Notes under the pieces: generated by a model
Databases searched by the model: none
Told to the model about the DNA's origin: nothing
What the model saw: the letters and a program-made list of their open reading frames with translations, nothing else
Shown: positions 125 to 16,211 of the stretch, piece by piece
Position numbering within the stretch: position 1 is the first letter of the stretch
Layout of the letters: every line of letters begins with the position of its first letter
DNA from: Anaerolineales bacterium
GTDB taxonomy: Bacteria; Chloroflexota; Anaerolineae; Anaerolineales; E44-bin32
Direction of reading: 5' to 3'
DNA: 58,969 nucleotides
Assembly (NCBI GenBank): GCA_046759305.1
Contig: JBHIBY010000003.1
Span: 1-58,969 of the forward strand
Position numbers and translations under genes: made by a program

Positions 125-841
125 CTAATCTTCGCAGGTTGCGGATGTTTCGTCGGGTGCCCAGACCAGTATCGATCCGGGATCGAGCGGTTGGAGCCGC
201 AGATAGGTCGTAAGCAACTCCTGAGGTGGAATAGAGGTGTAGGCGTGGGATGGAATAAATTCCAGGAGCCGATTCAGATCCACGTTGGCTGCGTTGGAGG
301 CAGCTTTGGCGCCAAGCGATATGAGAAACTGCTCTTGAGTGGTCAGGGAACCTCTGGGATTAGCGTACAGCGTCCGAAGAACAGCTGTGACCTGGTTGCC
401 CTGCAGGTGGGCGCCGTTTAGATCCAAACCTTCGAGTTCATCGATCAGCGCCGAAAACGCGGTTTCATCGGCGATTACAAAAGGCATCTCTTCAAATGCC
501 GCTAGGAATTCAGGTGCGACACCGCCGGAAGGATCCCAGTGGAAAAGCTCAGACAGGGGCCCCGACTGATTCTTACAGGCGATGCTATCGACAGAATGTC
601 CGAGCAGGATGACATCTCGTTCTGAGTAGCTGTAGGTCACCTGCCATACGGCAACAAGACTTGGTGCAGGCGCAGAAAGATCATCAACCCCGATAATGAG
701 CACCGATTCGCTGGGTTCGGCCTCTGGAGTACCGGTGGGCTGTGGGGAGGATTCTCCGCTGAGCAAGACTGTCAGCAGTCCTGCCGCGAAGAAGGATGCG
801 ATGATCAGTACGACCACCAGTGGCCGACGTTGGCTGGACAT
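125..841 (-). CDS. Membrane-anchored protein, LytR-CpsA-Psr (LCP)-like
   Basis: N-terminal TM helix, Pro-rich linker, VLIIGVD motif and LIDELEGLDL segment reminiscent of LCP proteins. Confidence 0.55.
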   Translation of the reverse strand: MSSQRRPLVVVLIIASFFAAGLLTVLLSGESSPQPTGTPEAEPSESVLIIGVDDLSAPAPSLVAVWQVTYSYSERDVILLGHSVDSIACKNQSGPLSELFHWDPSGGVAPEFLAAFEEMPFVIADETAFSALIDELEGLDLNGAHLQGNQVTAVLRTLYANPRGSLTTQEQFLISLGAKAASNAANVDLNRLLEFIPSHAYTSIPPQELLTTYLRLQPLDPGSILVWAPDETSATCED

Positions 842-930: not shown

Positions 931-1122
931 CTAATTAATGATCGCTCGTCCGACCACGACCCCGACGAAGTAAGCCACAAATCCCCCCAACACCACGGGG
1001 GAGTATGCTCTCGCATGGGCGATCCACTCTCGATGTTCTAAAGCCCATTCGGCCGCGAAAACGGTTGCTTTCAGAACTAGCAAGTTGATCAGAATGATCG
1101 GTCGGTATCGAATTTGATTCAT
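931..1122 (-). CDS. Small membrane protein (63 aa)
   Basis: Two hydrophobic segments, GAGGTG RBS, last gene of the operon. Confidence 0.6.
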   Translation of the reverse strand: MNQIRYRPIILINLLVLKATVFAAEWALEHREWIAHARAYSPVVLGGFVAYFVGVVVGRAIIN

Positions 1123-1126
1123 AGCT

Positions 1127-1354
1127 TCACCTCGATGTGCTCATGCGTATTACATCTCCATCCTCATCGGCGACGACGCGCACAATTCTCTTCATGGACT
1201 TTCCGTTCGGTAGTTCCGCTGCACCCTTGAAGGTCACAAGATAGCGGTCTTCATCATCACCTTGCTCCGATTTGATAGCTGGCCGGACGCCTTCCATCTC
1301 AGGGAACTGGCGAACCACAGTGCGGGTGATCTTTGTGAGAGCTTCTTTCTTCAT
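1127..1354 (-). CDS. 75-aa protein resembling the C-terminal domain of the C25-like protease at 3732-6266
   Basis: ATGA overlap with the ftsZ stop; ends VVADEDGDVIRMSTSR versus MTLDEGGKVIKLAVSR in the protease. Confidence 0.75.
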   Translation of the reverse strand: MKKEALTKITRTVVRQFPEMEGVRPAIKSEQGDDEDRYLVTFKGAAELPNGKSMKRIVRVVADEDGDVIRMSTSR

Positions 1355-2469
1355 GCTTGAGTCCCGTGATCGGCCGGCAAGCTGGGGTAGCTTCTACGTC
1401 GCAAGAAGGCCGGTATATCGAGATCATCCATATCAGGCGGTGAAGGTACCTCTTCTGCGACGCGCATCTCTTGCACGGGCTGACCACCTATTCCGGTCAC
1501 GATCAAGATCACCTGAGCTCTGCCCTGCATGGCCGGCTCGGTCGTAATGCCTAGAATTACTTCAGCTTCAGGCGGCATGTTTTCGCGCAAGTCCTCTACC
1601 GCGGCTCCAACTTCCACCAAACCAAGATCGTCGCCACCGGTGAAGTGAACCAGTGCACCTGTTGCTTGCCCAAGGCTGCTGATCTCAAGCAATGGGTGAT
1701 GAAGCGCCTGTTGGACTGCGATCTCAGATTTGCCAGAGCCTTCTCCGATCCCGATAGCCATCAGCGCGCCTCCGCCTTTGTGCATGACCGTGCGAACGTG
1801 TGCAAAATCGACATTGATGAGGCCCGGCTTGGTTACGAGCTCTACGATGCCCTGTATTCCCTGGCGCAGCACATCGTCTGCAAATCGAAATGCCACTTCC
1901 AGACTTGCCTCCCGAGGAACGACATGCAGCAACCGATCATTCGGTACGGTGATCAGGGTGTGGGTATGTGGCTGGAGTCGACGCACGCCCTCAGATGCAT
2001 TCTTAGCACGTTTGCTCATCTCGAAGGAGAAGGGCAAAGTCACAGTGGCGATCACCACTGCCCCAGTTTCGCGTGCTATTTCTGCTGCGATGGGCGTCGC
2101 CCCGGTACCTGTGCCGCCTCCCATTCCAGCGGTCAGGAAAATCATGTCCGCGCCCGCTAGGGTCTCAGAAAGCTCCCGACTGCTTTCAATCGCAGCTGCC
2201 GCGCCGACCTTAGGATCTCCCCCTGCACCTAGGCCGCGCGTTACTCCTGGTCCGAGCCGAATGCGTGTGGGGGCCAGGCTCGATTCGAGCGCTTGATGAT
2301 CCGTATTGGCGGCGATGAACTCCGCACCGATCAACCCCAACTCGACCATGCGGTTGACTGCATTAGAGCCGCCGCCGCCGAGCCCGAGAACTTTAATGCG
2401 GGCCTGGCCGATCTCTTCGATATTGCTGGCTTCAGCATCGCTGTGGCTAATTTCTTCTTGTTCTGTCAT
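1351..2469 (-). CDS. ftsZ: FtsZ, probably a second paralog, with T7 loop NVDFAH
   Basis: GLGGGGSNAVNRM, AANTD, GLGAGGDP, GMGGGTGTG tubulin signature, C-terminal DIPAFLRR peptide. Confidence 0.95.
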   Translation of the reverse strand: MTEQEEISHSDAEASNIEEIGQARIKVLGLGGGGSNAVNRMVELGLIGAEFIAANTDHQALESSLAPTRIRLGPGVTRGLGAGGDPKVGAAAAIESSRELSETLAGADMIFLTAGMGGGTGTGATPIAAEIARETGAVVIATVTLPFSFEMSKRAKNASEGVRRLQPHTHTLITVPNDRLLHVVPREASLEVAFRFADDVLRQGIQGIVELVTKPGLINVDFAHVRTVMHKGGGALMAIGIGEGSGKSEIAVQQALHHPLLEISSLGQATGALVHFTGGDDLGLVEVGAAVEDLRENMPPEAEVILGITTEPAMQGRAQVILIVTGIGGQPVQEMRVAEEVPSPPDMDDLDIPAFLRRRSYPSLPADHGTQA

Positions 2470-3695
2470 TTTCCATCCCTATAGGTAGCTTTCCAGGCTG
2501 CCACAAACATTTCGCTAGGACCCTTGACTCGTGTCACGGAGCATCCTCCCTCAACCAGTCGCCGCTCGACCGACGGAGGAACCGCGGCTTCGTCGCCAAG
2601 AATCGTCACCCTGTCAGCCTGAAGAGCTTCTTCGGGTGAGAAGCCGATCACGCCATCCCGGACCAGCGTTTTAACCGCGGCCCATGTGTCTTCAGACATC
2701 GGACCCTCAGGAAGAAGCACAAAGTGGCTTAGGGTCTTGCTGGTCGGATCGCTCAACCCGCCTACGTCAAGCAGCCGTTTGGCAGATCCCACGATTGTTC
2801 TAGGTTGGGTGGGGGAGTCGAACCAGGCAGAATCGAACTCCGGAACATTTGGGCTTGCCGATAGCAAGTAGAAATTAAAGCCCAGCACCGATTGCGGCAG
2901 TTGACCCGATTGCACGGCACGCAGTACGCTGGCCATCTCGCTGTTACCGTCTTCTAGAGTGCTGGGTGGTCCACCTGCAACAACGATCATTGGCAATGTT
3001 CTGCCCATGACGGATTCTGTAGTGGCCGCGTACCAATCAAATGTCCGAAAGCCAATCTGGTCTTGGGAACCTTCCGGCGTGTTGTAAGGTCTGCTACTAG
3101 ACCACTCAGAAGGACCCCCATACCCCCACTCCAATGGCTTTCCAAAGGTGCGCGCATAAACAGCCAAGTGCAAGTCGTCCAGAAGGCTGCGATGACCACG
3201 GCGCAGCATCGACTGCAGCGCGGTCTCCAAGAAAGAAGTATCCCAATAATCACCGCCGGGCTCGAGCGGGGGGAAAACCGGGTGCAGTCCGGAAGCTCGC
3301 TCGAGCTGCAATATCGGCAGCATGCGATCGACAAAGCGCTCCACGAGGCCGGCGCGTGCCCATTCATTGGACGACCAGCTGGATCTCATGTTGGGGCGAT
3401 CAAGCACCACGACTTCCCGCACGCCCCACTCGCCGTAATTGGCGAGGGCGGGTGAAAGCTGATCGGAGGTCATTTCGTCAACGCGCCCTTTAATCCAAAC
3501 CACAGGCCGAATGCCGGCCTCGATCAAGCCTCTTAGAAATGGTTCAGGTATTGGGTTGCTGGGCGTGGCGTGGAGCACTAGCCAGCTGGCCGACAATCGC
3601 AGGAGCGTCGGCAGCCACTCTTCGAGATCTTTCTCTGAATAGTGGCTATCGTCTGGGAAGTAGTGGAAACCTAGGCGAGAAATGGGTGCACCCAT
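2466..3695 (-). CDS. Glycoside-hydrolase-like (TIM barrel) protein with a possible cell-wall-binding C-terminus
   Basis: LGFHYFPD start, aromatic-rich barrel-like body, C-terminal VTILGDEAAVPPSVERRL resembling the CW_binding_2 motif. Confidence 0.55.
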   Translation of the reverse strand: MGAPISRLGFHYFPDDSHYSEKDLEEWLPTLLRLSASWLVLHATPSNPIPEPFLRGLIEAGIRPVVWIKGRVDEMTSDQLSPALANYGEWGVREVVVLDRPNMRSSWSSNEWARAGLVERFVDRMLPILQLERASGLHPVFPPLEPGGDYWDTSFLETALQSMLRRGHRSLLDDLHLAVYARTFGKPLEWGYGGPSEWSSSRPYNTPEGSQDQIGFRTFDWYAATTESVMGRTLPMIVVAGGPPSTLEDGNSEMASVLRAVQSGQLPQSVLGFNFYLLSASPNVPEFDSAWFDSPTQPRTIVGSAKRLLDVGGLSDPTSKTLSHFVLLPEGPMSEDTWAAVKTLVRDGVIGFSPEEALQADRVTILGDEAAVPPSVERRLVEGGCSVTRVKGPSEMFVAAWKATYRDGK

Positions 3696-3709: not shown

Positions 3710-3725
3710 TGCAAGGTTTGTGCCA
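3710..3725 (-). promoter_or_regulatory. sigma54 -24/-12 promoter for the GH-like/ftsZ operon
   Basis: Minus strand TGGCAC-AAACC-TTGCA in the 36-bp intergenic gap. Confidence 0.85.
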
Positions 3726-3731
3726 CGCTCG

Positions 3732-6266
3732 TTAGCGGGAGACAGCCAGCTTGATTACTTTGCCGCCTTCGTCCAGGGTCATTTGAGCGAAGTGGGGATG
3801 CACCTTAGAGCCATCGCGCACTTGCTTGGATAGGGTCACTACCACGGCCTCATTCTCACCCACTGTTTTCGCACCAATTTGCTGGCTTGGGCAGCAATGA
3901 TCATCGTGGTCACAGCCGCGGTGTTGGTTCCGCAAGCTCCATTCGGCGTCCGTCAAGGTGGGTAGATATTGGGCCACGATGGAGTGAACACGATCGGTAG
4001 TCGGAGAATAGGATTTCTCCTTGTGCAGGTCCGGCCCTCCAAGCGCGCAAGCGGTCTTCATGGAAGCCGGTCGCTTGGATACGCGGATGACTACTTTGCT
4101 GCGCTTTGAGCGACCGTTCAACTGTGATGTGAGAAGCGGATCGCCATAGAGCACAAATGAGATCAGCGTTTTCTGATCTTCTCCATCAAGGAATCCTTGG
4201 CGCTCGAGCATTTCTGCGGCCAGCTTGAGCTTCGCGAGCCGTAAGGCTTCGCCGATCGGAACAGATTGGCGTAGTTGGTCCCAGAACAACCGCCCCAGTA
4301 GGTCCGCAGCGATCAACGGAGGAGTGACCGAGCCGTAGGAAATCATAGTAGATCCGACAACCGCCTGGCTGCCGCTCGCGAGAAACTTTAAGCTCAGTGC
4401 AGTCTCTTCGGTCTTGCCAATCGCGTGCGCTCCATAGCAGGCCTCGGTGAACACGATCCTTGGAGCACGTCCGCTATTGACTACATCCTCCGGCCGCAGC
4501 GCAACCGGAAATTCAACCGTGTCCGACACATCCCTCAATGGGTCTCGCTGACCGTACCATTCGGGAGAGTCCTGCAAACCGTGCAGATTGAAATACGAGA
4601 GCGGACTCGGACGATTCACAACCGAGGGCATGTTGCCTGCCGCATTGGGTGGGGAGGTAATCAGTGAGCGTGGGGTACCGATCGCTCGGAATACCGCCAG
4701 CGATGCCTTGCGCCAAATGCTGGCGCTGTACCCGATAGCATTGGGTTGCGGACGGAAGAAGCGTCCAAATCGATTTCGCAGCCAGACTCCGAAACGTTTG
4801 GGGCTTGATCTTGAACGCAATTGCTCGCGATGGGCGGCAGTGGCTATGCTGATCAATTTGACCAGCAGGTCGGTATCAGAGTCGATCGGCAGTCGGCCTA
4901 CTGGCCACTCGGGGGCGAAATAGTTTTCGTCCGTGGCCGCATAAGGATTGTCTGAAGGAACTGAATCATCGTCGTCATCCGTTGGATTGGGGAGCAGATG
5001 GAACGGAATAATGTTGTGGCCCCCGACAATGAGAACGGCTCCGATCATTTCACCGCGTTCAGCAAGTGCCCGATCGAGATCTGCCAATCGCAGCTTGATC
5101 TGCCAGGCATTTCCGGGATCGCATGGCTTTAGTCCGAAAGGCTGAAGCGAGCGAGGATCGTCGATGTAAATGCGATAGGCGCCCCAACCGCTTTTACGCC
5201 GTACGACCTCGACCAGGTTCATAATCGCTTCATTTACGCGTCTGAACCCGGACGGGCCAATCTCCTGTACAAGCCTGGTGTGACTGGTCAACACGATGTA
5301 GGCCGGGAGCCTTGCTTCTTGACCCTCGACAGTTCGGCGGGCATTGAGTCGTTGGGCCAGCCGGTCAAACTCGTTGCGCACTGCTATGAGCGCTTCGTTG
5401 GCGACAGTTTGTTCGCCGGAGTTTGGCCCCTGGAAAGCTTCACCAGGTTCCGGGATGGGTATGGAGGAAACATCCGATTTCGGGAACTTTGCTGATGCAC
5501 CCATCACAGCCATGATTTCGTCCGGAATCGGGCGACTGATCTGCGCTTGCATGTGAACCGGCCAAAGGGACCGATACGGATGATCGATGCCGAGCACGGT
5601 TTCAGCGACAACACCCAGTGGATCTGCTGCGGCGACCTGATGCATGCTCTCAACGCCTACGGCCGACCGATCGGAGCTAAGTTGTGATTCAGCCAAGATT
5701 AGATTGAATGCAACACAGTGAGGCCAGCGATCGTGACTTGCCTCAGCCAGATGTACGGCTTCTCGCGTAGCTCCCGAAGCGAGACTGGCTCGGACAGCGA
5801 CCAGAGCGGGCAGGGCGAAGCTGGGATCCGCGGCTAGCGCTTCGTTTGAAGCACGCAGGGCCTCCGCAGCTTCACCCGCATCAAGCGCTTTGTAAGCCCT
5901 CGCTAGCGCGACCGCCCATGAAGGGGAGCTGGCCGGATTTGGTTGTTCACTTGCCAATACCTTTGCGCAGGCGATGTAAACCGGGATCCGCAAGCTATCC
6001 CCGGTCTGTTTGTACGCCTCAGCCAGCATCTCATATGCGGGTTGAGATTCGGGATCGACCTCGACAAGAAGCGACAATCGGTCAATTACCGGACCGGTGG
6101 CGCCCGACTTGAGCTCGATCGCTGCGAGCTGGAGAGCAAGCTCAGTGTCGCCTGGCCATATCGCCAGCCACTCAATAGCCAGGCTACGCGCGAAATCCAA
6201 TCGGCCCGCTACCTGAGCAGCATGAATTGTGCTTACTACGGATTCACGATCCATTGATTTAGCCAT
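3732..6266 (-). CDS. TPR-domain plus peptidase C25 (gingipain-like, clan CD) cysteine protease
   Basis: N-terminal TPR-like helices; LIVGG..IIPF, SDNPY, VGRLP, YFNLHG (His), FTEACYG (Cys), LYGDP motifs. Confidence 0.8.
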   Translation of the reverse strand: MAKSMDRESVVSTIHAAQVAGRLDFARSLAIEWLAIWPGDTELALQLAAIELKSGATGPVIDRLSLLVEVDPESQPAYEMLAEAYKQTGDSLRIPVYIACAKVLASEQPNPASSPSWAVALARAYKALDAGEAAEALRASNEALAADPSFALPALVAVRASLASGATREAVHLAEASHDRWPHCVAFNLILAESQLSSDRSAVGVESMHQVAAADPLGVVAETVLGIDHPYRSLWPVHMQAQISRPIPDEIMAVMGASAKFPKSDVSSIPIPEPGEAFQGPNSGEQTVANEALIAVRNEFDRLAQRLNARRTVEGQEARLPAYIVLTSHTRLVQEIGPSGFRRVNEAIMNLVEVVRRKSGWGAYRIYIDDPRSLQPFGLKPCDPGNAWQIKLRLADLDRALAERGEMIGAVLIVGGHNIIPFHLLPNPTDDDDDSVPSDNPYAATDENYFAPEWPVGRLPIDSDTDLLVKLISIATAAHREQLRSRSSPKRFGVWLRNRFGRFFRPQPNAIGYSASIWRKASLAVFRAIGTPRSLITSPPNAAGNMPSVVNRPSPLSYFNLHGLQDSPEWYGQRDPLRDVSDTVEFPVALRPEDVVNSGRAPRIVFTEACYGAHAIGKTEETALSLKFLASGSQAVVGSTMISYGSVTPPLIAADLLGRLFWDQLRQSVPIGEALRLAKLKLAAEMLERQGFLDGEDQKTLISFVLYGDPLLTSQLNGRSKRSKVVIRVSKRPASMKTACALGGPDLHKEKSYSPTTDRVHSIVAQYLPTLTDAEWSLRNQHRGCDHDDHCCPSQQIGAKTVGENEAVVVTLSKQVRDGSKVHPHFAQMTLDEGGKVIKLAVSR

Positions 6267-9200
6267 GTACTAACTCCAGTGCTCGGGCAGCTGCCAGTTG
6301 ATGCATCACTTCCTGATTGGCCGGAGCGAGCTCGGCGGCTCGTTTGAGCATCTCGCCTGCCTTGCGATAGGCCTTGAGCGTTCGCAGCAACAGGCCGGCT
6401 CGATAGTGAGCTTGAAGGCTGTTCGGGTCGATCTCTACTGCTTTGAGGTACGAGTCCAACGCGCGTGGGTACTCGCGTCGGTCTTCGTACACCAGACCGG
6501 CCTCAACCGGGATTCGTGCGTCATCCGGATCCGCGTTTTCGGCCTTCCGCAACTCTTCGACTGCGCGATCGAGATTGCCGGATTTGCGCGAGATGCGGCC
6601 CAATCCCAGCCGATATTCAGGATTAACAGGGGAAATACGGATTGCCTCGCCTATGGCTTTCTCGGCGCTGCTTAGGTCTAATCCCGCTTCCAGCGTCTCG
6701 GCCAGCTCATGCCATAAGCGGTGGTCATCCGGATCGGAGTTCAACACCTCTTCCATCGCCTCTGATGCTTGATCATGTTTTCCTTGCCTGATGAGCACCA
6801 TGCTCTCGCCACGACGCACATCGATTGGGTCGGCTCCGGCTTGAAGAGCTTTTTCAAATGCAGATAACGCGGCTTCATAGTCGCCAGATCCGGCGCGAAC
6901 GTAGCCCGCTCCAAGCAGCACTCGAGCATCATCGGGTGCTTGTTGAGTGGCAGACATTAGTCTCTCGTCCGCCTGCTGTCGGTTGCCAAGAGCCATGGAA
7001 GCCTTTGCGGATCCAATCAAGGAATCGATATCGGAAGGGGCAAGGGTGATCGCACGCTCGAACCAGGTAGATGCCTGGTCATACGCTTCCAAATGAAGAG
7101 CTACTTGACCAGCCTCACGGTGCGCGGTAAAGGAATCGGAGCCATAGGCCAAAGCTGCTGTGTAGCCTTCCAGCGCCTGATTGAGATGCCCCGAGGAGGC
7201 ATAAGCACTGGCAAGCGATAGTAAGTAATCTGAGTTCTCAGGGGCGCTGCTAACCGCTTCTTGGAAGTGGGCTAGCGCCGAATCTTCGTCTCCCATTTGC
7301 ACATAGACCGAAGCCAATCTGTGCTGCCAGCGATGCTGATGCGGAGCCTCGAGAACGGCAGCTCCCATGTGAGTGGCAGCTCGCTCCAGGCTTTCCGATC
7401 GCTCATACGCCCTACCAAGCAAATAGCTAGCAATCGGAGTAGATGAGATGCCGGATCGATATGCGGAACGCGCTTCCTCTTGCTGACCCGCGAGCTCGTG
7501 AATCATTCCCTTAAGAATTGAGCTCCACTCCGCTTCAGCGCGAACTAGTTCAACCTGGGCAAGGGTATCGCTAGCCGCCGTAAGTCCATTCGCCTTCAGC
7601 AAAGCAACGGTGATTGCTTCTCCGATCCACCCCATCGGGTCGGAGCCAATGAAGTCAAGTAATTCTGCAGGTGCTTCTTCGACTCGGAGCCATGGACCAA
7701 AAGCTGGGTCTTCAAGATTGCGTTTTTGGAGGGCTTCCATGGCGCTTCGGACGGAGCTCGTCAGATCATCGATCTGCAATTCGGATACGGCATCGGACAG
7801 GCTAAATAGCGAGAGCATGTCTCGAGCTCGCAAGGAAACGCGCACCTGCTCCATAGCTGCAAAGGGATCCGCATCCCATCCAACCAGAGCTGCAACAGCC
7901 TGTTGGGCGTTGAAGAGCCCCATTTCCGCCCTGGCAACCCAGATCGCATCATGTGCAGACTCGATTTGAATAATCCTTGCCCGTTCAAGGAATTCCATTG
8001 TGCGGCTACGATCGGAAGTGGCAACGGCAAGCATGGCGAAGGAACGAGGCGTCTCGTAGCCCAGTTCAATCGCTTCTGATAGCGATGAGGTGGCCAGGTC
8101 GCGCTTGTCTAGCAAGAGAAACGCTTCGCCTATGGCTGCTTTCCCGCGCCCGCTGTCCGCTAGAGTTGATCGAAGCAGGCCAAGCGCATTGCGTGGCTCG
8201 CCTGAGATCAAGGCTGTTTCGGCAGCTTCGTACGCCAAGGAACTGTCGTTGCCCGCAGCCTTGACCGCTCCCGCATAAGCTAAGAGACCCTCACGGACCT
8301 GACCCTGCTCAAGGTGAGCCCTGGCCAAATCGCGACGAAGCCAGGGATTTCCAGGTTCTATTGCTACGGCCTTTTCCAATTGATTGACCGATTGGCTGCC
8401 TAAGCCGAGCAGTTGGGCGCATGCAGCAGAGCGCCGGAGGGGTTCCGGTTCGCTCGGAGCAAGACCAGTGTTGGCCTGCCATGATTTGTAGGCTCCTTGA
8501 TAATCGGCCGCGGCTTCCTGGATACTCGCCAGAACGCCCAGCAACTGGGGATCGTCCGGCCGGGTACGAGTGGCCGCCTTCATCACGCGGATTGCAGAAT
8601 GAAGGTCACCCCTGTGCTCCAGAAACTGTGCAGTATCCTGCAGGACCTTGGGATTGCGTCGGCCGCGCCACAAGGCTTCGGCGACCGATCGACGGACGAC
8701 ACGTTGATCCTGAGCTTCGGAGGCCAATCTGGCTAATGTGAGCCAGCCCTCGGCTGCCCTTGGGTCAAGAGCGCTCAGTCTTTCCACTGCCTTGATAGCA
8801 CCACGGAAATCTCCGGAGTTAGCGAGGGAATCGCCCAATGCGTGCCAAGCACGAGAGTCATCGGGGTCGAGTTCGACGGCTTGCTCTGCGACCTCAAGCG
8901 CCTTATCCGGAAGATTGGCGAATAGGTACACGTCGGACATAGCAGCAAGGATCCGAGCTGATCGAGGGTAGTGCGCCTGAGCATCCTCAAGAATGGCAAG
9001 TGCGATCGAGATTTGATTCATCCCAAGCGCAGAACGTGCAGAACCAAGGATTGCTTTCTCACGTAACTCGTATTCGTTCGATTCCAGCGCCTGCTTATAG
9101 CGAGCAAGTGCCTCGTCGTAGCGCTCAGCTTGTTCGTACGCCCGGCCGAACCAGTAGCTTGTTGAGGGATTTGCCCAGCCTCCCTGTTCTGCGATTTCCA

Positions 9201-11211
9201 GACTGACGAGCGCAGAATCCAGCTCGGAGTCTTTGACACCTGATCTGATTGCGATGCGAGCGGAGTGGAAATAAGCTTCTGCAGGGGCTGTCGAGGGCAG
9301 AGGACGGATTACTTGGGCCGCTTGAGCCAGGTCTCCTTGCCGCTCGAATGCCTTTGCCAATGCTAGACCTACCCGCCAGCTAAGAGGTTGTCTCAACGCC
9401 AACCGGCGCAAGATTTCAAACGCTTGATCTGCGTGCCCAAGCTCGCTGAGCAGCTCGGCGTACTCCAGCCCAGCTTCCACATTTGTGTTATCCAACTCCC
9501 ATGCGGCGGATGAAACATCCAAGGCTTCACTGACTCTTCCCTGCTCGCGCAAATGCCTTGCCAGCGAAAGGCGAATGCTAGGATTTTTCGGATTGGCCTG
9601 AATTCCTTCAGTCAGCGTGTCGTACGCTTCAGCGCTACTTCCACGTTCGGTATGAACCGCGGCAAGCGCCTCGTAAGCGCGGATCTCAGAGGGTGACCTT
9701 CTAACTGCCTCTCTATACTTGGATACGGCGCCTTGGTGATCGCCGGTTCGATCAAGCAGCTGCCCTTCCAAGAATGATTTGCTCGAACTCGCCGGTAGCT
9801 CGTCCGTGATGTTCGACGCCATTTCGAGATCGCCCGCTGCAATGGCATATTGGGCAAACTCGCTACTGTCCTTGGCCGACAGCTGATGCATATGCTCGAG
9901 GGCCTTTGTGTGATGGCCAATCTGGTGTTGAATCTCGGCCAGGAGCTTGCGTGCTGCCTCGTAATCTGGATGGAGCGCTATACCGATCGCAGCAAATTCT
10001 TCCGCTTCCTCGGCATCGCCAGCCTCAAACAATGCTCGTGCCAGACTCACATACGCTTCCATGCTGGCCGGATGATGTGAGACGCGCATACGAGCGGCCC
10101 TAACAGCAGCCGCCCAATCGTTAGCACTTGTTAAACCCTCGGTCAGTAGTGCGAGCCATTCTTCATCCAGGGGATCGCTGATTGAGTCCAGCGCGCCGTT
10201 TAGCATGACTCGAGAATCGCCGCTCTGGGATTGAGCCAAGCCAGCTGCGATCTGTTCCTCAACTGTCGGATCAGTGCCGGAGACAAGCGAGAGACTTTCG
10301 CCCTGGCGGTCCAGGCTGATCAAGCTCAACGCTGTACGTGCTCGCCGAACCGGCGTAGGAATGATTTCTAAAGCTCGGCGATTAGCCTCGAGTTCCGTGA
10401 CCACGTCTCCTGAATCCCGTGCCTGATCGGCAGTGATATCGGCGATCCGGGCCGCAGTTTCCGATGCCGTTTCCCAAGCCTTATTAAGTGAACTGCGCGC
10501 GGCGCTGGGTTCGCCATTGAATTGGCGTTCCACAGCCTCAATCAATAGGTTTGATACCCTGTCGGATCCACCATTGGCTGAAAATGAGAGCGAGCGAGCC
10601 AGCTCCGTTTCGCGATTGCGAGAGATCTGCTGCAGCAACTTTCCCGTAGAGCCATTTGCATTACGAGTGAGCAATGCAGCCGCTTCACTAGCCGAGACAT
10701 TGGCGAGTGCAATCTGAATGGCAAAGTTGGACATATTTTGATCCAGCAGATTGCTAATGAGCTGTTCTGGATTCTCAAGGTTGGTCCAGATGATCGCGAT
10801 CGGAGATCTCCAGGTGGCTGCAGATTCCGACACGCGTTCGATGAGCAGCTCGGGATCATCGTCGTAGCGTCGCCCGAACTCGACACCCAACAGCGCTGTG
10901 TCGAGCAGATCACGCCGGATTAAGACACCGACAGCTGCCTCGTCCCAGACCTGACGGGCACGCGCCCCATGCGCCTCGGCAATACTCCGGTTCATTTCAG
11001 AGTGGAGACTTCCACCCAGGGCAAGCGAGGCAAGATGTGACGACGTCAAGTGGGCAGGCGGATTTGACGCGGTGACTTCGTCCAGAAAGGCGGGAATGTG
11101 CAGCGCGGCCCACGCCTCCGGAACGCGGAGCAGGCGTTTGAGAGCAGCCGCGAGCTGGTCCCGGTCTAGGTGCGCTTGGAGCGCGACCAGGACTTCTTGG
11201 TCCGTGTGCAT
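6259..11211 (-). CDS. Giant tetratricopeptide-repeat protein (1650 aa)
   Basis: Numerous A...Y..A...P TPR repeats along most of the ORF; stop overlaps the protease start. Confidence 0.85.
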   Translation of the reverse strand: MHTDQEVLVALQAHLDRDQLAAALKRLLRVPEAWAALHIPAFLDEVTASNPPAHLTSSHLASLALGGSLHSEMNRSIAEAHGARARQVWDEAAVGVLIRRDLLDTALLGVEFGRRYDDDPELLIERVSESAATWRSPIAIIWTNLENPEQLISNLLDQNMSNFAIQIALANVSASEAAALLTRNANGSTGKLLQQISRNRETELARSLSFSANGGSDRVSNLLIEAVERQFNGEPSAARSSLNKAWETASETAARIADITADQARDSGDVVTELEANRRALEIIPTPVRRARTALSLISLDRQGESLSLVSGTDPTVEEQIAAGLAQSQSGDSRVMLNGALDSISDPLDEEWLALLTEGLTSANDWAAAVRAARMRVSHHPASMEAYVSLARALFEAGDAEEAEEFAAIGIALHPDYEAARKLLAEIQHQIGHHTKALEHMHQLSAKDSSEFAQYAIAAGDLEMASNITDELPASSSKSFLEGQLLDRTGDHQGAVSKYREAVRRSPSEIRAYEALAAVHTERGSSAEAYDTLTEGIQANPKNPSIRLSLARHLREQGRVSEALDVSSAAWELDNTNVEAGLEYAELLSELGHADQAFEILRRLALRQPLSWRVGLALAKAFERQGDLAQAAQVIRPLPSTAPAEAYFHSARIAIRSGVKDSELDSALVSLEIAEQGGWANPSTSYWFGRAYEQAERYDEALARYKQALESNEYELREKAILGSARSALGMNQISIALAILEDAQAHYPRSARILAAMSDVYLFANLPDKALEVAEQAVELDPDDSRAWHALGDSLANSGDFRGAIKAVERLSALDPRAAEGWLTLARLASEAQDQRVVRRSVAEALWRGRRNPKVLQDTAQFLEHRGDLHSAIRVMKAATRTRPDDPQLLGVLASIQEAAADYQGAYKSWQANTGLAPSEPEPLRRSAACAQLLGLGSQSVNQLEKAVAIEPGNPWLRRDLARAHLEQGQVREGLLAYAGAVKAAGNDSSLAYEAAETALISGEPRNALGLLRSTLADSGRGKAAIGEAFLLLDKRDLATSSLSEAIELGYETPRSFAMLAVATSDRSRTMEFLERARIIQIESAHDAIWVARAEMGLFNAQQAVAALVGWDADPFAAMEQVRVSLRARDMLSLFSLSDAVSELQIDDLTSSVRSAMEALQKRNLEDPAFGPWLRVEEAPAELLDFIGSDPMGWIGEAITVALLKANGLTAASDTLAQVELVRAEAEWSSILKGMIHELAGQQEEARSAYRSGISSTPIASYLLGRAYERSESLERAATHMGAAVLEAPHQHRWQHRLASVYVQMGDEDSALAHFQEAVSSAPENSDYLLSLASAYASSGHLNQALEGYTAALAYGSDSFTAHREAGQVALHLEAYDQASTWFERAITLAPSDIDSLIGSAKASMALGNRQQADERLMSATQQAPDDARVLLGAGYVRAGSGDYEAALSAFEKALQAGADPIDVRRGESMVLIRQGKHDQASEAMEEVLNSDPDDHRLWHELAETLEAGLDLSSAEKAIGEAIRISPVNPEYRLGLGRISRKSGNLDRAVEELRKAENADPDDARIPVEAGLVYEDRREYPRALDSYLKAVEIDPNSLQAHYRAGLLLRTLKAYRKAGEMLKRAAELAPANQEVMHQLAAARALELVHG

Positions 11212-11223
11212 GCGGACCCCGGT

Positions 11224-11553
11224 TTAGATAACTTGGACCTGATCGACGACCCAGTATGAGGCCGCGATCATCCCACTGCCCAACATGATCAGAAACAAGC
11301 CGGCCCCGCTGGCAGTCTTCACTAACGAGTTCAGCGCACCTACTAACTCAGAGGCGCTGTTGACCAGGCCGGTGACTTCTTCTGCCATTCCTTTGCGGCC
11401 CAGGCGGGCTGAATGCGTAGCCAAGGCACGAATCTCCTTGGAGTAGCCCCGACTTACTAGGACGAATATTCCAAGCAGTACGCACATGCAACCCAAGACA
11501 AATACGGTTGCCGCGATGATCATTTGCATATCAATGGTTGAAAGAGGAATCAT
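11224..11553 (-). CDS. Two-TM small membrane protein (~109 aa)
   Basis: GGAGG RBS before ATG at 11553, downstream of the sigma54 promoter; two hydrophobic helices. Confidence 0.75.
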   Translation of the reverse strand: MIPLSTIDMQMIIAATVFVLGCMCVLLGIFVLVSRGYSKEIRALATHSARLGRKGMAEEVTGLVNSASELVGALNSLVKTASGAGLFLIMLGSGMIAASYWVVDQVQVI

Positions 11554-11588
11554 GTCTGCCTCCAGAAAAGGGATCTGAAGGCCATAGG

Positions 11589-11604
11589 TGCAATGATCGT
11601 GCCA
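11589..11604 (-). promoter_or_regulatory. sigma54 -24/-12 promoter for the membrane protein/TPR/protease operon
   Basis: Minus strand TGGCAC-GATCA-TTGCA. Confidence 0.85.
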
Positions 11605-11653
11605 GGCACGGCATGACCATCGTTCACGCACCATCATGAGCAGGAACGCTAAG

Positions 11654-12832
11654 TTATGAGGAAATTAGGTCTTGGAATTCGGGGGAGAGGTGACCAAGAT
11701 CGATTTCTTCGTCATCGCAGAAAAGCATGGCTCGTTCGATGACGTGACGTAGTTCCCGCATATTGCCTGGCCAATCGTGGGCTATGAGAGCTTCGATCGC
11801 GCGTGGAGTGATGCCAGTCACTGGATTACCGGTGCGCAGACTCTCCTGACGAATGAAAGACCCCGCCAATGCAGGGATGTCACCTTTGCGCTCGCGCAAA
11901 GGCGGCAAGTGAAGGTCGACCACCTTCAAACGGTAGTAGAGGTCCTCTCGAAAGCTGCCGTCTTTCATCATCAAAGGCAAATCTCGGTTGGAGGCGGCGA
12001 TGATCTGAACATCGACGTTGATCTCATTCACCCCGCCGATCCGGCGAAACTTCCGCTCGTCGAGAACACGCAATAGCTTGGCCTGCATATCCGGCTTAGT
12101 AGAGGAGATTTCATCCAGAAACAGGATTCCGTCATCTGCGACTTCCATTAGCCCAGGCTTGCGCTTGGTGGCACCCGTAAATGCTCCCGCTTCATGGCCG
12201 AAGAGCTCGGTTTCAATCATGGTGTCGGGTAGCGCCGCGCAATTGATGGGCACAAATGGCTTTTCGGCTCTCGGTCCTGAGACCCGAATCACGTTAGCCA
12301 TGATCTCTTTACCGGTCCCGGTCTCTCCTGTGATGAGAACCGAGACAGACGCTGCAGCAGCGCGCTCTGCTTCGTCCGCAATACGAGCCATCTCCGGAGT
12401 ATCTCCCACGATCCACTCGTACTGATTCTGAGAGGATTTTCGGAGCAAGGTGAGTTCACGCCGCATAGAGACGACTTCGCTCGCTCGTTCGATCGCGCCG
12501 ATAAGTTGCTCTAGATCTAGAGGCTTCTGAAGGAAATCTTGAGCACCTTGCTTCATGGCCTGAACCGCGATATCGACCTCGCCAAAGGCCGTCATGAGAA
12601 TCACGGGCGGGCTGGGGTTTTCCCGTTCAATTTGCTCTAGGAGCGAAAGCCCGGATCCATCGGGTAGCACAACGTCTAATAGGACAATGTCAGCTGCCCC
12701 TGTCTCGATGGCTTGCTGTGCCTGTGCCAAGTCGCCAGCTTCAATTGCTTCGTAGCCCGCGTCGCTGAGCGCCTCATTGACAAAGCTGCGGGCTGTGTCT
12801 TCGTCGTCAACGATAAGAACCGTTAGGCTCAT
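11654..12832 (-). CDS. sigma54-dependent response regulator (REC plus AAA+), lacking the C-terminal HTH
   Basis: REC (LIVDD, LLDVV), Walker A GETGTGKE, GAFTGA, LFLDEI, WPGNMREL; ORF ends about 30 aa later. Confidence 0.93.
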   Translation of the reverse strand: MSLTVLIVDDEDTARSFVNEALSDAGYEAIEAGDLAQAQQAIETGAADIVLLDVVLPDGSGLSLLEQIERENPSPPVILMTAFGEVDIAVQAMKQGAQDFLQKPLDLEQLIGAIERASEVVSMRRELTLLRKSSQNQYEWIVGDTPEMARIADEAERAAAASVSVLITGETGTGKEIMANVIRVSGPRAEKPFVPINCAALPDTMIETELFGHEAGAFTGATKRKPGLMEVADDGILFLDEISSTKPDMQAKLLRVLDERKFRRIGGVNEINVDVQIIAASNRDLPLMMKDGSFREDLYYRLKVVDLHLPPLRERKGDIPALAGSFIRQESLRTGNPVTGITPRAIEALIAHDWPGNMRELRHVIERAMLFCDDEEIDLGHLSPEFQDLISS

Positions 12833-14763
12833 GCTGATTGTGCGATTGGGAGCTGCAGCGTGAAAACGGTGCCCGCATCAGGATAGCTCTCCACCGAGAT
12901 GTTTCCCTGGTGTGCGTTCAAAATGCGCCGACTGATAGCGAGCCCGAGTCCCGTTCCGGTTTTCTTAGTAGTGAAGAACGGATCAAAAACGCGGTCCAGT
13001 TGATCCTGCTGTATCCCCGGCCCTGTATCTGCAATTTTCAGTTCCAGATCCTTCGGCCCGATGGGCGAGACGCTGATAGAAAGCGTGCCGCCTTCCGGCA
13101 TAGCCTGGATGGCGTTGGTGAGGAGATTGACGATAACCTGTTCCAGAGTCCGCTCGTCTGCGATAACGGGCGACATCTGTGGGGCGAAGTTCTTATGAGT
13201 ACGAACCTTAGCTAAGGACAGACGTGGTTCCCATCGGGTGAGGATCCGCTCTAAGAAGTCTGAGAGGTCTATCGATGCGAACTTGAGCTCCAATGGACGT
13301 GCGAAGAAAAGTACGTCTTCCATCAACTGGTCCAGCCGACTGCATTCGCTACGCACTCGCTCAATCGATTCGTATTGCGGATGCTCGCTTCCCAATCGGG
13401 ATGCAACAAGCTGCAATCCAGTGCTGATGTTGTTGATCGGATTTCGTACCTCATGCGCAAAGATCGCCGCGACCTCGCCTAGCAGGGCACGCTGTGCAAG
13501 CGTTTCGCTCTGATCTTCGATCGCCTTTTGCTCCGACTGATCACTTAGCACAAGCACGACCCGGGTCGGCGCTGCATCCTCCTGAGGTACGGCTCTCACA
13601 TTTACTGGAAAGGGCGTGCCATCTCGCCTGTGAAGCGTCACATGAGCTCGATCAGCCTGGCGCTGATGCCCCAGAACGTCCAGAAGAGTGGTCATTATGT
13701 CCGAAGGTCCTACCAAAACCTCCTGGATCTCCATTCCAATCAGCTGGTTGTCTGGGTAACCCAGCATTCGGGACGCAGCTTGATTGGCTCGTAGGACTCT
13801 TAATTTCGAGTCGAGTGCAAGGACCGCGTCGTTCACCGCCTCGAACTGAAGCTCTTGCTCCTGCTTACTGTGCTCTAGCGCATCATCCAGCTCCGTAACA
13901 ACCTCTCGCTGCATATTCATCAGGATACGGGCGTGGCTGAGATTGGCCAAAATCTCCATGAGACCGATGGCGTCTGATGGTACGTCTTGAAGCTCGCGCC
14001 ATCCGACGACAAGCAGCCCTACCCAGGCACTGGACGTCCCTAGCGGGGAAGTCCGCAAAGCCTTCAACCCTAAGGACCGAGCTGACCGCTGAAGCGGGTG
14101 ATCGGGCCGAGTGCCAATGGACCATTGGCTTGGGCGATCCAAAGGATCGAGGTCGGTGGTGGGCAGGGAGGCGGGAAAACCATCGGGTAGATGGCCCTCG
14201 AGCTCATATTCCGGACCGACCGATGAGACTCGATAGACGCCGACCGCCGCAGCAGAAAGGAGTTTTCCAGCTAGCTGGATGATATCGGCTAGCGCACTTG
14301 GCGTCGATTCGAGCAGCACCTCTGTGATCTCGATCAGCGTCGCCAACTGTTCCTTTTCCGAAAGCGATCGTTGTTCATCGCGCAAACGGTCGGATGTTGC
14401 TCCGACCCGTAGCAAGATTGCCTGCGGCGGGCTGCCTACCGGAAAGGCGAGGATATCGACCAGGAGCTGTTCGCCGTCGCGAGTAACGGCTGGCACCGAA
14501 TTTATTTTGCCCTCGCTCGAGGCCTTCGCGCGTGCAAGAGCCACCACACCTTCATCGCTAAAAAAGAAGTCGGAAGGAGCAACGGCCTCCAGCTCGTTTC
14601 GGGTGAATCCGCTCAACAGAAGAAATGCGTGGTTTGCGGCAAGAATCGTACGCGCCTCGCCGTCGATAACCAGAACTGCCTCGCTTAGCGAATCAGCGAG
14701 GGCTGCGAATAACTCTTTATGGGGTTGAGGTCTGAGCAATCTCGTAATTGGGTTCGTTGTCAA
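12829..14763 (-). CDS. Cytoplasmic PAS-(GAF-like)-PAS sensor histidine kinase
   Basis: Two PAS segments, H-box AHEVRNP, N-box NLLTNA, DTGPG, FFTTK, GTGLGL; no TM segment. Confidence 0.92.
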   Translation of the reverse strand: MTTNPITRLLRPQPHKELFAALADSLSEAVLVIDGEARTILAANHAFLLLSGFTRNELEAVAPSDFFFSDEGVVALARAKASSEGKINSVPAVTRDGEQLLVDILAFPVGSPPQAILLRVGATSDRLRDEQRSLSEKEQLATLIEITEVLLESTPSALADIIQLAGKLLSAAAVGVYRVSSVGPEYELEGHLPDGFPASLPTTDLDPLDRPSQWSIGTRPDHPLQRSARSLGLKALRTSPLGTSSAWVGLLVVGWRELQDVPSDAIGLMEILANLSHARILMNMQREVVTELDDALEHSKQEQELQFEAVNDAVLALDSKLRVLRANQAASRMLGYPDNQLIGMEIQEVLVGPSDIMTTLLDVLGHQRQADRAHVTLHRRDGTPFPVNVRAVPQEDAAPTRVVLVLSDQSEQKAIEDQSETLAQRALLGEVAAIFAHEVRNPINNISTGLQLVASRLGSEHPQYESIERVRSECSRLDQLMEDVLFFARPLELKFASIDLSDFLERILTRWEPRLSLAKVRTHKNFAPQMSPVIADERTLEQVIVNLLTNAIQAMPEGGTLSISVSPIGPKDLELKIADTGPGIQQDQLDRVFDPFFTTKKTGTGLGLAISRRILNAHQGNISVESYPDAGTVFTLQLPIAQSA

Positions 14764-14775
14764 ACGCTACCCTCG

Positions 14776-16161
14776 CTATGCTGTAGCAGCCTGCGTTTTC
14801 CGCAGTCTGGCAGGGAGGATCCCCTCCATCGTTCGATATTTCGCTACCGTTCGCCGGGCAATTTTGACTCCTTGTCGGCGAAGGAGGTCAGCAATTTGAT
14901 CATCGGTGAGTGGTTTCTTCTCAGATTTCACGATTTCCTTGATTCGATCCCGAACCGATAGGCTTCTATCGAAGAACCGGGCCAGCGGAATGATGCGACC
15001 ATCTGGCAGCGCTACACCTTTATTTGCGACTGCACGGGACACCGTCGATTCATGTACTTCAAGCTTTTCGGCCAATTTTGCGCGGGTCATTGGCTCCAAA
15101 TAGCGGTCCCCATTCAATATAAATTCGCGCTGTTGCTCTACCAAGTTTTCCATCAGCCTGCGCATAGTATTGTTGCGCTGTTGCAGACATTTGACAAATA
15201 GGGAAGCACGTTCCAAATGCTTCTTCCACTCTTCTGAGTGGTTCTCATCAGCATCTGCTAGGGCTTTCCTGAATTGTGGATTAACTCGAAGCCAACCAGG
15301 CATCGAGGAAAAGATCTCAACGATGAGCGGGCCCCTCGATCGCTGAGTGATTTGGATATCCGGGGAATGGTAGACATTTGGATCGGCGCCGTTGGGCGAG
15401 CGCCCGGAACCCCAGAATACTCGAGCAGGATAAGGGTTCAATTTTTCCTGAATAAAGGTGGCTGCTTTTCGGACCTTCGAAACGGGCACTTCAATCTCAT
15501 TGGCGATCGTGTCAAAGCCGCGCCGCGCCAATCGCTCGAATTCAGTTTCCAGCATCTTCCGGGAAAGAATTACCAGCGGGTCGTCCGCTCGCATCAGATC
15601 GAGCTGGGCGAGCAGCGCTTCCCGCGGACCGGATGTGCCAAGGCCCGGAGGGTCAACGTGCGAGATCAGGTCGATGACGCCGTGGACTTGCTCCATCGGC
15701 GCTCGAAGTTCTCGAGCAATGAGAACTGGGGCATCCGCAAGAAATCCGTCGTCGTCAAGGCTGGAGAGTATGTATGCCGCAATTGGGCGATCTTCCACAG
15801 CCAATTCCGCGGCTAGTTGCTCAAGTACATGGATGGCGAGGCTCTCAGGCGCGGCTGGCTCAAGTTCTTCAGTATCGTCCTCAAATCGCGGAGTGCCGCC
15901 AGCCTCGCGTGGCGAGATGAAGACTACAGAGTCATCATCCGCATGCGGGGAGCTGCACCTGGGGCATGGGCCGTGCGCTGGGAGCCGTTTCTTGCATGTC
16001 GGGCACACCAGATCATCGAGCAGTTCCAGTGCGGGATTCTCGGCAAGTTCCTCAAGCACTTTGTCCTGTAGCTCCTGATTGGAGAGCGCCAGCAGGCTCA
16101 TGGTCTGGGCTAAGTGGGCGGTTGCGACGTGCCGTAGCGATTGATCTTGTATCTGAAGCAT
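14776..16161 (-). CDS. rpoN: RNA polymerase sigma-54 factor
   Basis: ENPALE region I/II, HESTVSRA HTH, RpoN box ARRTVAKYR. Confidence 0.96.
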   Translation of the reverse strand: MLQIQDQSLRHVATAHLAQTMSLLALSNQELQDKVLEELAENPALELLDDLVCPTCKKRLPAHGPCPRCSSPHADDDSVVFISPREAGGTPRFEDDTEELEPAAPESLAIHVLEQLAAELAVEDRPIAAYILSSLDDDGFLADAPVLIARELRAPMEQVHGVIDLISHVDPPGLGTSGPREALLAQLDLMRADDPLVILSRKMLETEFERLARRGFDTIANEIEVPVSKVRKAATFIQEKLNPYPARVFWGSGRSPNGADPNVYHSPDIQITQRSRGPLIVEIFSSMPGWLRVNPQFRKALADADENHSEEWKKHLERASLFVKCLQQRNNTMRRLMENLVEQQREFILNGDRYLEPMTRAKLAEKLEVHESTVSRAVANKGVALPDGRIIPLARFFDRSLSVRDRIKEIVKSEKKPLTDDQIADLLRRQGVKIARRTVAKYRTMEGILPARLRKTQAATA

Positions 16162-16195: not shown

Positions 16196-16211
16196 TGCAA
16201 GAAGCGTGCCA
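16196..16211 (-). promoter_or_regulatory. sigma54 -24/-12 promoter upstream of rpoN
   Basis: Minus strand TGGCAC-GCTTC-TTGCA, 34 bp upstream of the rpoN ATG. Confidence 0.85.

Follow-up and report, generated by a model that had tools for sequence, protein, structure and literature searches.

A 58,969-nucleotide stretch of an Anaerolineales genome (contig JBHIBY010000003.1 of assembly GCA_046759305.1, the window hereafter) carries a gene, ftsZ2, for an FtsZ whose T7 loop has a histidine in the place of its second aspartate. The safest statement is that FtsZ2 is a conserved paralogue, placed by its sequence context under sigma-54 control, with what appears to be a remodelled hydrolysis site, which coexists with the housekeeping FtsZ (FtsZ1) of the same genome. 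We think it probable that FtsZ2 is a signal-induced FtsZ with slow GTP turnover, and on the evidence of its T7 loop it may reasonably be inferred to be GTPase-poor. The original prediction, which took ftsZ2 for a GTPase-poor paralogue acting as a stable scaffold or as an inducible modulator or inhibitor of the main Z ring, is thus partly supported. A literature search, with subscription journals and supplementary files outside its reach, yielded no published description of this paralogue; what is new is that the ftsZ of the sigma-54 operon is a second copy and that it lacks the T7 aspartate.

The product of ftsZ2 scores above the curated cut-offs for both the Tubulin/FtsZ GTPase domain (Pfam PF00091, E 2.9e-43, 148.8 bits against a cut-off of 33) and the FtsZ C-terminal domain (FtsZ_C, PF12327, E 6.9e-23, 81.2 bits against 27), as well as for the NCBIfam ftsZ equivalog TIGR00065 (369.7 bits, cut-off 295.2), and it is 45-50% identical to solved FtsZ cores. 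Residues were mapped by a gapless alignment to B. subtilis FtsZ (2vam), in which the query residue equals the B. subtilis residue plus 11. Read on the minus strand, the codons GGC CTC ATC AAT GTC GAT TTT GCA CAC GTT give GLINVDFAHV, with CAC at 1800-1798 exactly as first described; within the T7 synergy loop N-x-D-x-x-D, N219 and D221 are kept and the second Asp is replaced by His224. The replaced residue is D213 of B. subtilis and S. aureus FtsZ, which corresponds to D212 of E. coli. Other motifs named at the outset are found as well: the GGGTGTG loop stands in an intact G-box (loop T4, GMGGGTGTG), FEG has become FEM (in the stretch PFSFEMSKR), and the DIPAFLRR peptide is present within DLDIPAFLRRR, which is not terminal, as a tail of 13 residues follows it. 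Across 58 FtsZ2 orthologues N55, D57, Q59, G83, G115, G117-G119, G123, E150, R154, N177, D198, N219, D221 and H224 are invariant, and M116 and T120-T122 of the G-box are conserved in at least 90%; in the C-terminal peptide P353, F355 and R357 are invariant and L350, D351 and R359 reach at least 90%. To judge by alignment, FtsZ2 keeps all the residues known to contact GTP, Mg2+ and K+, the 'swinging' T7 Asp, the H5 Arg and the C-terminal anchor-binding peptide. It shares with the canonical FtsZ of E. coli, B. subtilis and S. aureus the two domains, the G-box, the T1-T6 residues, the T7 Asn and first Asp, the H5 Arg and the C-terminal peptide, and differs from it in the T7 His, the FEM motif, a changed strand S9, a one-residue insertion near 268, the sigma-54 promoter and a context outside the dcw cluster.

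The histidine is conserved. Among the 120 best matches in a search of 5.8 billion proteins (65-100% identity, the window's own protein included; where named, mostly Anaerolineales, Anaerolineae or Chloroflexota) the T7 position is His in 111, Asn in seven (six DFAN, one DFEN), Gln in two and Asp in none, and FEM is present in 115, the remaining five lying outside the search pattern used. Twelve of the nearest cluster representatives (P0123, P0125-P0131, P0133, P0136, P0137 and P0139) read DFAN, DFSH or DFAS, and the ftsZ2 copies of two genomes (G013 and G018) read DFSH; the group lacking this Asp is therefore wider than DFAH. From the aligned proteins, the second T7 Asp in the FtsZ2 group appears as His, rarely as Asn, Gln or Ser. 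Both histidine codons are used in 56 orthologous genes (CAT 29, CAC 27), and the ratio of nonsynonymous to synonymous divergence (dN/dS) against six close orthologues is 0.04-0.08, at a saturated dS of 1.7-3.0; for three further orthologues dS was not computable. In principle the same reading could come from an artefact, whether a wrong base, a pseudogene or a fragment placed in the wrong bin, and in favour of this stands the state of the assembly (217 contigs, 84.8% completeness, 4.65% contamination). We give this explanation next to no credence, and as far as sequence allows it is refuted: His is found in those 111 of 120 homologues, the frame is intact under the constraint just given, Logan contigs from three public runs, all belonging to one study and one possibly the source of this DNA, cover 1798-1800 with zero differences, and 12 of 13 genomes of the same genus, including the window's own and, with an Asp-type gene truncated at a contig end, G005, hold both FtsZ types, the thirteenth being 52% complete. 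Two of the checks first proposed, on the conservation of DFAH in orthologues and on a base error at the codon, the latter made with these contigs, thus both come out in favour of the histidine. Elsewhere in ftsZ2, at window position 1840, the contig of one run (X2, depth 4.3) has T for C, which is probably a strain variant.

That ftsZ2 is a paralogue, as the original prediction had it, follows from the second gene in the genome (2.88 Mb; two Tubulin-family genes). On contig C1 a canonical ftsZ1 immediately follows ftsA; its product has NLDFADV at T7, an FEG motif and DIPAFLRRR at its end, and shares 50% identity with FtsZ2. ftsZ2 lies outside the dcw/ftsA context and is preceded by a gene for a 409-residue protein, X409, instead of ftsA. 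To survey the order we searched 151 genomes, the window's counted within and the others at least 85% complete, for the two T7 patterns. The His type occurs in 80, always in exactly one copy and with 0 control matches, the Asp type in 146, and both types in 78 of the 80 His-type holders. In one of the two remaining holders, G005, a contig end truncates the Asp-type gene ahead of the T7 loop; the other, G339, is a genome 89% complete. The His type is near-universal in families f1 (13/14), f2 (14/14), f7 (13/14), f11 (13/13) and f69 (11/13), and was not found in this sample in families f5 (0/11), f10 (0/13) and f73 (0/7); in total 71 of the 151 genomes are without a His-type match. The sequences show ftsZ2 to be an old, strongly constrained paralogue kept beside the housekeeping ftsA-ftsZ1 pair in a large group of Anaerolineae (Chloroflexota).

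Phylogeny, a further check originally called for, sets the X409-linked proteins apart from canonical FtsZ. In 40 further loci fetched around T7 matches, every ftsA-linked FtsZ carries Asp at T7 and the X409-linked FtsZ read AH, SH or AN, with the exceptions of L090 (of the order, family f5, DFAD) and L101 and L102 (family f51, DFSD). The 277 rows of a FastTree comprised all fetched loci in which a single T7 motif was clear, one in five of the homologue matches plus all non-His ones, and the 150 nearest 50%-cluster representatives, leaving out representatives with 0 or 2 T7 motifs or a short core. The X409-linked non-Asp proteins form one clade of 128 rows (support 96), inside which a clade of 119 rows (support 99) has 0/119 Asp, the Asn and Gln variants being nested among His at several places. 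An IQ-TREE quick tree of 101 hand-picked rows (LG+C20), from which the T7 and FEG columns had been removed, likewise splits the non-Asp proteins (support 96) from a side of 42 rows that holds the ftsA-linked FtsZ of the class, the FtsZ of other bacteria and Asp-keeping paralogues. Because Asp is the rule outside the non-Asp clade, we read the change from Asp to His as derived.

Published studies of FtsZ bear on the function of the replaced residue. Three residues hold the pre-catalytic water in filaments of S. aureus FtsZ, namely D210 and D213 in the T7 loop of the upper subunit and G72 in the lower one; of these D210 swings as catalysis proceeds, while D213 and G72 stay in place and are said to 'provide a chemical environment' (Ruiz et al. 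2022, PMC8936486). The passages of that paper available to us also describe a water bridge between D213 and R143 of the lower subunit and a contact between strand S9 of the upper subunit and loop T5 of the lower, and report that D213N, like D210N, suppresses assembly. In E. coli, strains whose sole chromosomal copy is D212A or D212G are viable; D212G retains 14% of the wild-type GTPase activity, treadmills at 6.7% of the wild-type speed and builds deformed, asymmetric septa (Yang et al. 2016, bioRxiv 10.1101/077610); D212A is said in another excerpt to hydrolyse 'much more slowly' (PMC4383033). The premise given as established, that GTP hydrolysis needs this Asp, is overstated in view of the viable strains and the residual activity of D212G; as to the further premise that such mutants are dominant-negative, the passages on D212A, D212G and D213N make no statement. 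Nor do the literature passages on these mutants contain a His replacement at D212 or D213. FtsZ2 and the laboratory mutants (E. coli D212A, D212G and D212N, S. aureus D213N) have the same residue replaced, yet the latter are single changes in a housekeeping protein, whereas the change in FtsZ2 is natural, long fixed and accompanied by coupled changes.

These coupled changes emerge from a comparison of 56 non-Asp with 34 canonical rows, limited to positions at least 80% conserved in the canonical rows and shared by at most 15% of the non-Asp rows. In the numbering of the window's protein, Asp (100% of canonical rows) gives way to His, Asn or Gln at 224, Gly to Met or Ala at 151, and a region of one-residue insertion lies at 268, where canonical Gly is 100%. 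In strand S9 the changes are Asn to Glu or Asp at 303, Phe to Leu, Pro or Met at 306 and Val to Thr or Ile at 309; others are Arg to Lys at 247, Ala to Ile, Val or Leu at 252, Thr to Ile at 321 and Ala to Val at 324, and five more positions differ (138, 169, 266, 322 and 327). The FE motif goes with the T7 residue, as a co-distribution among 273 related rows with a readable motif: Asp at T7 is paired with FEG in 135 of 143, while of the 110 rows with His at T7, 109 have a residue other than Gly after FE (Met in 96) and all keep the Arg that stands three positions further on. Placed by alignment to 2vam and by the available text of Ruiz et al. 2022 (PMC8936486), His224, Met151 beside Arg154 and the S9 changes would all lie around the gamma-phosphate and the S9/T5 longitudinal contact.

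ftsZ2 is predicted to be expressed on demand. An exact TGGCAC-N5-TTGCW element precedes X409, and the window holds three such sites against 0.09 expected, all on the minus strand and within a single 16-kb gene cluster; 0 of 100 shuffles reach three. A survey of 80 related loci from species-representative genomes, whose neighbours were identified by tblastn, allowed X409 to be delimited in 75. A core element (GG[CT]A[CT]-N5-TTGC[AT], both strands) lies within 250 nucleotides upstream of X409 in 73 of these, and additionally just before ftsZ2 in 15 of the 75; the 2.1 Mb scanned contain 15 other matches. The gap from the element to the X409 start is 15 nucleotides in the window's genus and has a median of 30 in the related loci (range 0-199). 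With 15 nucleotides after the -12 element, the mRNA would be nearly leaderless. The features expected of a sigma-54 operon are there, a -24/-12 element before the first gene and, in the genome, rpoN and an AAA+ activator, and in this genome the genes for sigma-54, a kinase and the activator adjoin the cassette, which we predict to be transcribed from this promoter. The word 'inducible' in the original prediction thereby gains sequence support. The element before rpoN raises the possibility of autoregulation. In the activator, which ends with the AAA+ lid, no helix-turn-helix or other DNA-binding domain was detected, so that it may act without enhancer binding. Kinases paired with receiver-AAA+ activators that lack a DNA-binding domain, and sigma-54 promoters, are also found in FlgS/FlgR/RpoN of Helicobacter and CtcB/CtcC of Chlamydia; unlike in those systems, the targets in the window are a cytoskeletal cassette and tetratricopeptide repeat (TPR) proteins. 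As the gene behind the sigma-54 promoter is an extra ftsZ, division as such would not be sigma-54-gated in these bacteria. The second element of the window (11589-11604) falls inside a listed 137-residue open reading frame (ORF; 11224-11637); this frame may accordingly be spurious, or its true start may lie further on.

ftsZ2 does not stand alone behind this promoter. The X409 stop overlaps the ftsZ2 start, and the ftsZ2 stop the start of a 75-residue gene, s75, each as ATGA; X409 immediately precedes ftsZ2 in 76 of the 80 loci (the other four have ftsZ within 350 nucleotides of a contig end) and s75 immediately follows it in 78 (the exceptions being one contig-end cut and locus L061). X409-ftsZ2-s75 can thus be described, from the gene arrangement, as a translationally coupled cassette. 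X409 has no match in NCBIfam or in Pfam up to E<=10. Its AF2 model (pLDDT 89.6) resembles PslG and GH1, GH128, GH26 and GH39 enzymes in Foldseek at E of about 1e-8 with TM 0.45-0.5, and X409 would accordingly be a glycosidase-shaped, presumably cytoplasmic protein. Clan GH-A enzymes are (beta/alpha)8 barrels in which strand 4 is followed by an Asn-Glu acid/base pair and strand 7 by a Glu nucleophile; in X409 the position after the invariant Asn102 is Met in the window and is not conserved across 55 orthologues. For s75 (AF2 pLDDT 91.9) Foldseek found no PDB fold match at E<=0.001, NCBIfam gave no match, and Pfam up to E<=10 returned only DUF6522, at E 0.077 and below its cut-off. A complex prediction of FtsZ2 with s75 scored 0.00 twice, run without controls, and has no bearing either way.

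Taken together, a slow and conditional FtsZ would work as follows. The kinase would sense a signal and the activator would switch the cassette on. FtsZ2 would bind GTP and polymerise head to tail, and in its T7 loop the attacking water would be held by an uncharged or positive imidazole rather than a carboxylate, making GTP hydrolysis much slower. The resulting filaments, with slow turnover and slow treadmilling, would reach the membrane by way of the C-terminal peptide that FtsZ1 also has. Either by themselves or in mixture with FtsZ1, and probably with X409 and s75, they would form a longer-lived division or septation structure.

Several points weigh against this account. The S. aureus D213N exchange abolishes assembly instead of stabilising filaments, in the passages cited, and the effects of single mutants thus do not transfer simply. 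Between the same genomes FtsZ2 evolves faster than FtsZ1 (against genome G014, FtsZ1 is 74% and FtsZ2 52% identical). Both trees are unrooted, and in the IQ-TREE tree L090, X409-linked and Asp-bearing, falls among the non-Asp rows with a very long branch (4.05), which may reflect either a reversal or a misplacement. One pattern used to collect the 80 loci was INVDFAHV, so that their 80/80 DFAH is biased; the counts from the homologue search, the cluster representatives and the pattern searches of genomes are free of it. Finally, the residues found here do position the attacking water in other GTPases, His in EF-Tu, Gln in Ras and G-alpha and Asn in RapGAP, and the site may therefore be remodelled and not crippled.

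This last point leads to the main rival reading, in which His224 (or Asn or Gln) has taken over the water-holding of Asp, perhaps in a pH-dependent way, and FtsZ2 is normally dynamic, differing from FtsZ1 in its timing and its partners X409 and s75. The replacement is never random, there being no Ala, Gly or Lys among the 120 homologues, D221, Arg154 and all T1-T6 residues are invariant, the changes beside Arg154 and in S9 look compensatory, and the moving catalytic role is given by Ruiz et al. to the other Asp (PMC8936486, as excerpted). Yet every change of this Asp reported for E. coli and S. aureus in the passages available, Asn included, lowers GTPase activity or assembly, and outside the paralogue clade the Asp is kept in 137 of the 140 rows sampled, the exceptions being one DFAA and two DFAS; we regard a fully competent site as rather unlikely.

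A conditional promoter with its own kinase and activator would also suit a brake on division, in which a small amount of FtsZ2, co-assembling with FtsZ1 through shared longitudinal surfaces, would freeze or cap the Z ring under stress, differentiation or infection, since interfaces topped by the His loop would not fire. The C-terminal peptide is the same as in FtsZ1, and FtsA is the only membrane anchor found in the window's genome, SepF (PF04472) not having been found in this 84.8% complete assembly. Rare FtsZ/tubulin domains have moreover been described as effectors of conflict systems in multicellular prokaryotes (Kaur et al. 2020); those systems, in the parts of that study consulted, are STAND-NTPase fusions, which ftsZ2 is not. 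An inhibitor would need neither a fully conserved GTP pocket, nor coupled interface changes, nor two dedicated partners, and the fact that both faces (T5/H5 and S9/T7) have changed points to a homopolymer matched to itself, so that we hold a brake to be decidedly improbable.

The eukaryotic tubulins offer a further comparison, as another paralogue pair of which one member has no acidic residue at the corresponding place in the T7 motif. By the N-x-D-x-x-[D/E] spacing of T7, rather than by a structural superposition, His224 would fall at Glu254 of alpha-tubulin and Lys254 of beta-tubulin. In beta-tubulin the positively charged Lys254 takes the place of the Glu254 that holds the water in alpha-tubulin, and GTP at the N-site beneath it stays unhydrolysed (Akil et al. 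2022, PMC8956254, in the passages available). FtsZ1 and FtsZ2 might accordingly alternate in one filament, the His-loop interface of FtsZ2 holding GTP unhydrolysed like the N-site and the Asp-loop interface of FtsZ1 being exchangeable and hydrolysing, and the strict co-occurrence of the two (78/80) would fit. However, tubulins are obligate, co-produced heterodimers, whereas ftsZ1 and ftsZ2 are unlinked genes under different control, and about half of the order manages with just FtsZ1; such a heteropolymer seems very improbable. A bolder analogy, which we judge distinctly unlikely and offer as conjecture, would make FtsZ2 a bacterial counterpart of beta-tubulin whose His loop locks GTP at every interface that it covers, so that, once the kinase and sigma-54 had switched it on, co-polymers with FtsZ1 or FtsZ2 filaments held by X409 and s75 would make a treadmilling Z ring static and long-lived. 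If true, a multicellular filamentous bacterium would possess a natural and regulated way of switching its cytoskeletal dynamics.

The slow, signal-induced FtsZ that we favour would join other cases of a second FtsZ. Chloroplasts and archaea likewise have two paralogues, FtsZ1 and FtsZ2, with split roles such as backbone and remodelling filament in the accounts consulted, though those pairs arose from independent duplications. Neither member of the chloroplast and archaeal pairs is known to have lost the T7 aspartates, since T7 mutants had to be engineered. The truncated paralogues of Hyphomicrobiales, such as FtsZ1 of Agrobacterium, likewise stand beside an essential FtsZ and are thought to tune division (bioRxiv 10.1101/2025.09.29.679267, in part); they are without the linker and C-terminal peptide, whereas FtsZ2 is full-length, has the peptide and differs in the catalytic loop. 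Chloroflexota have zero mentions in the portion of that paper available to us. Work on FtsZ dynamics rests on engineered T7 mutants; FtsZ2 carries a change of this kind that became fixed in nature, and its opposite face shows changes to match. Found beside a normal ftsZ in roughly half of a large Chloroflexota order, under a dedicated, apparently signal-dependent promoter and with two partner genes, FtsZ2 offers a natural setting in which to ask what use slow GTP turnover has, and possibly an early stage of the division of labour between catalytic and non-catalytic subunits seen in alpha- and beta-tubulin.

Table 1. Position, strand and basis of assignment of features in the window
Feature	Position	Strand	Basis
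ftsZ2, FtsZ paralogue, 372 aa, T7 loop NVDFAH	1351..2469	-	ORF and profile matches, orthologues
Codon CAC, His224, at B. subtilis/S. aureus D213	1798..1800	-	alignment to B. subtilis FtsZ; contigs of three runs agree
Codon for Met151 (FEG to FEM), at S. aureus G140, three residues N-terminal of Arg154 (S. aureus R143)	2017..2019	-	alignment
C-terminal peptide LDIPAFLRRR (residues 350-359)	1393..1422	-	sequence; 58 orthologues
X409, 409 aa, no signal peptide by eye; predicted clan GH-A-like TIM barrel and C-terminal alpha/beta domain	2466..3695	-	AF2, Foldseek
s75, 75 aa, one helix packed on a four-stranded sheet (predicted)	1127..1354	-	AF2 model
Sigma-54 -24/-12 element TGGCACAAACCTTGCA, 15 nt before X409 ATG	3710..3725	-	exact pattern; conserved
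Second exact sigma-54 element, before the 1650-aa gene	11589..11604	-	exact pattern
Third exact sigma-54 element, upstream of rpoN	16196..16211	-	exact pattern
Sigma-54 activator, 392 aa: receiver, AAA+ and lid	11654..12832	-	domain search
PAS histidine kinase	12829..14763	-	domain search
rpoN (sigma-54)	14776..16161	-	domain search
844-aa TPR and Peptidase_C25-like protein	3732..6266	-	Pfam
1650-aa TPR-repeat protein	6259..11211	-	Pfam
s63, 63-aa hydrophobic ORF downstream	931..1122	-	tblastn matches in closest loci only
p238, 238 aa, N-terminal hydrophobic stretch	125..841	-	in most related loci

As regards the neighbouring genes, the TPR/C25-like gene lies directly upstream of the cassette in 51 of the 54 closest loci (L003-L056), and s63 and p238 gave nothing useful in Pfam up to E<=10. 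An apparent fusion of FtsZ2 with s75 in three loci was ruled out, stop codons (L017 and L037) or masked letters (L035) lying between the genes. Locus L023, a full Anaerolineae-type cassette, comes from a record titled Methanosarcinales archaeon MAG; its FtsZ2 sits on a zero-length branch in a tight clade of Anaerolineales loci, and the archaeal label is probably a binning error.

Other FtsZ variants turned up in the class. In family f12 (L106, L107, L118 and L119) an extra Asp-type FtsZ, in frames of 424-683 residues, has two different X409-like genes 2.5-3 kb away, one on each side, and the ftsA-linked FtsZ of these genomes reads GMINVDFAD. In family f40 (L091-L095) an extra Asp-type FtsZ that ends in EIPTFLRRARGLL follows a 490-residue TPR/C25-like gene, with no X409 nearby. 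Three cluster representatives, P0121 (840 residues, with two GLVNVDFADV loops), P0122 (826) and P0124 (744), have two FtsZ-like stretches per protein and could be tandem fusions or artefacts of assembly or gene calling. The degenerate T7 pattern also matches unrelated frames among several class-level matches, for example GYLNFDFAN, and the match on contig C26 of genome G016 (L115), where no homologue of FtsZ, FtsA or X409 was found, was set aside as a chance match.

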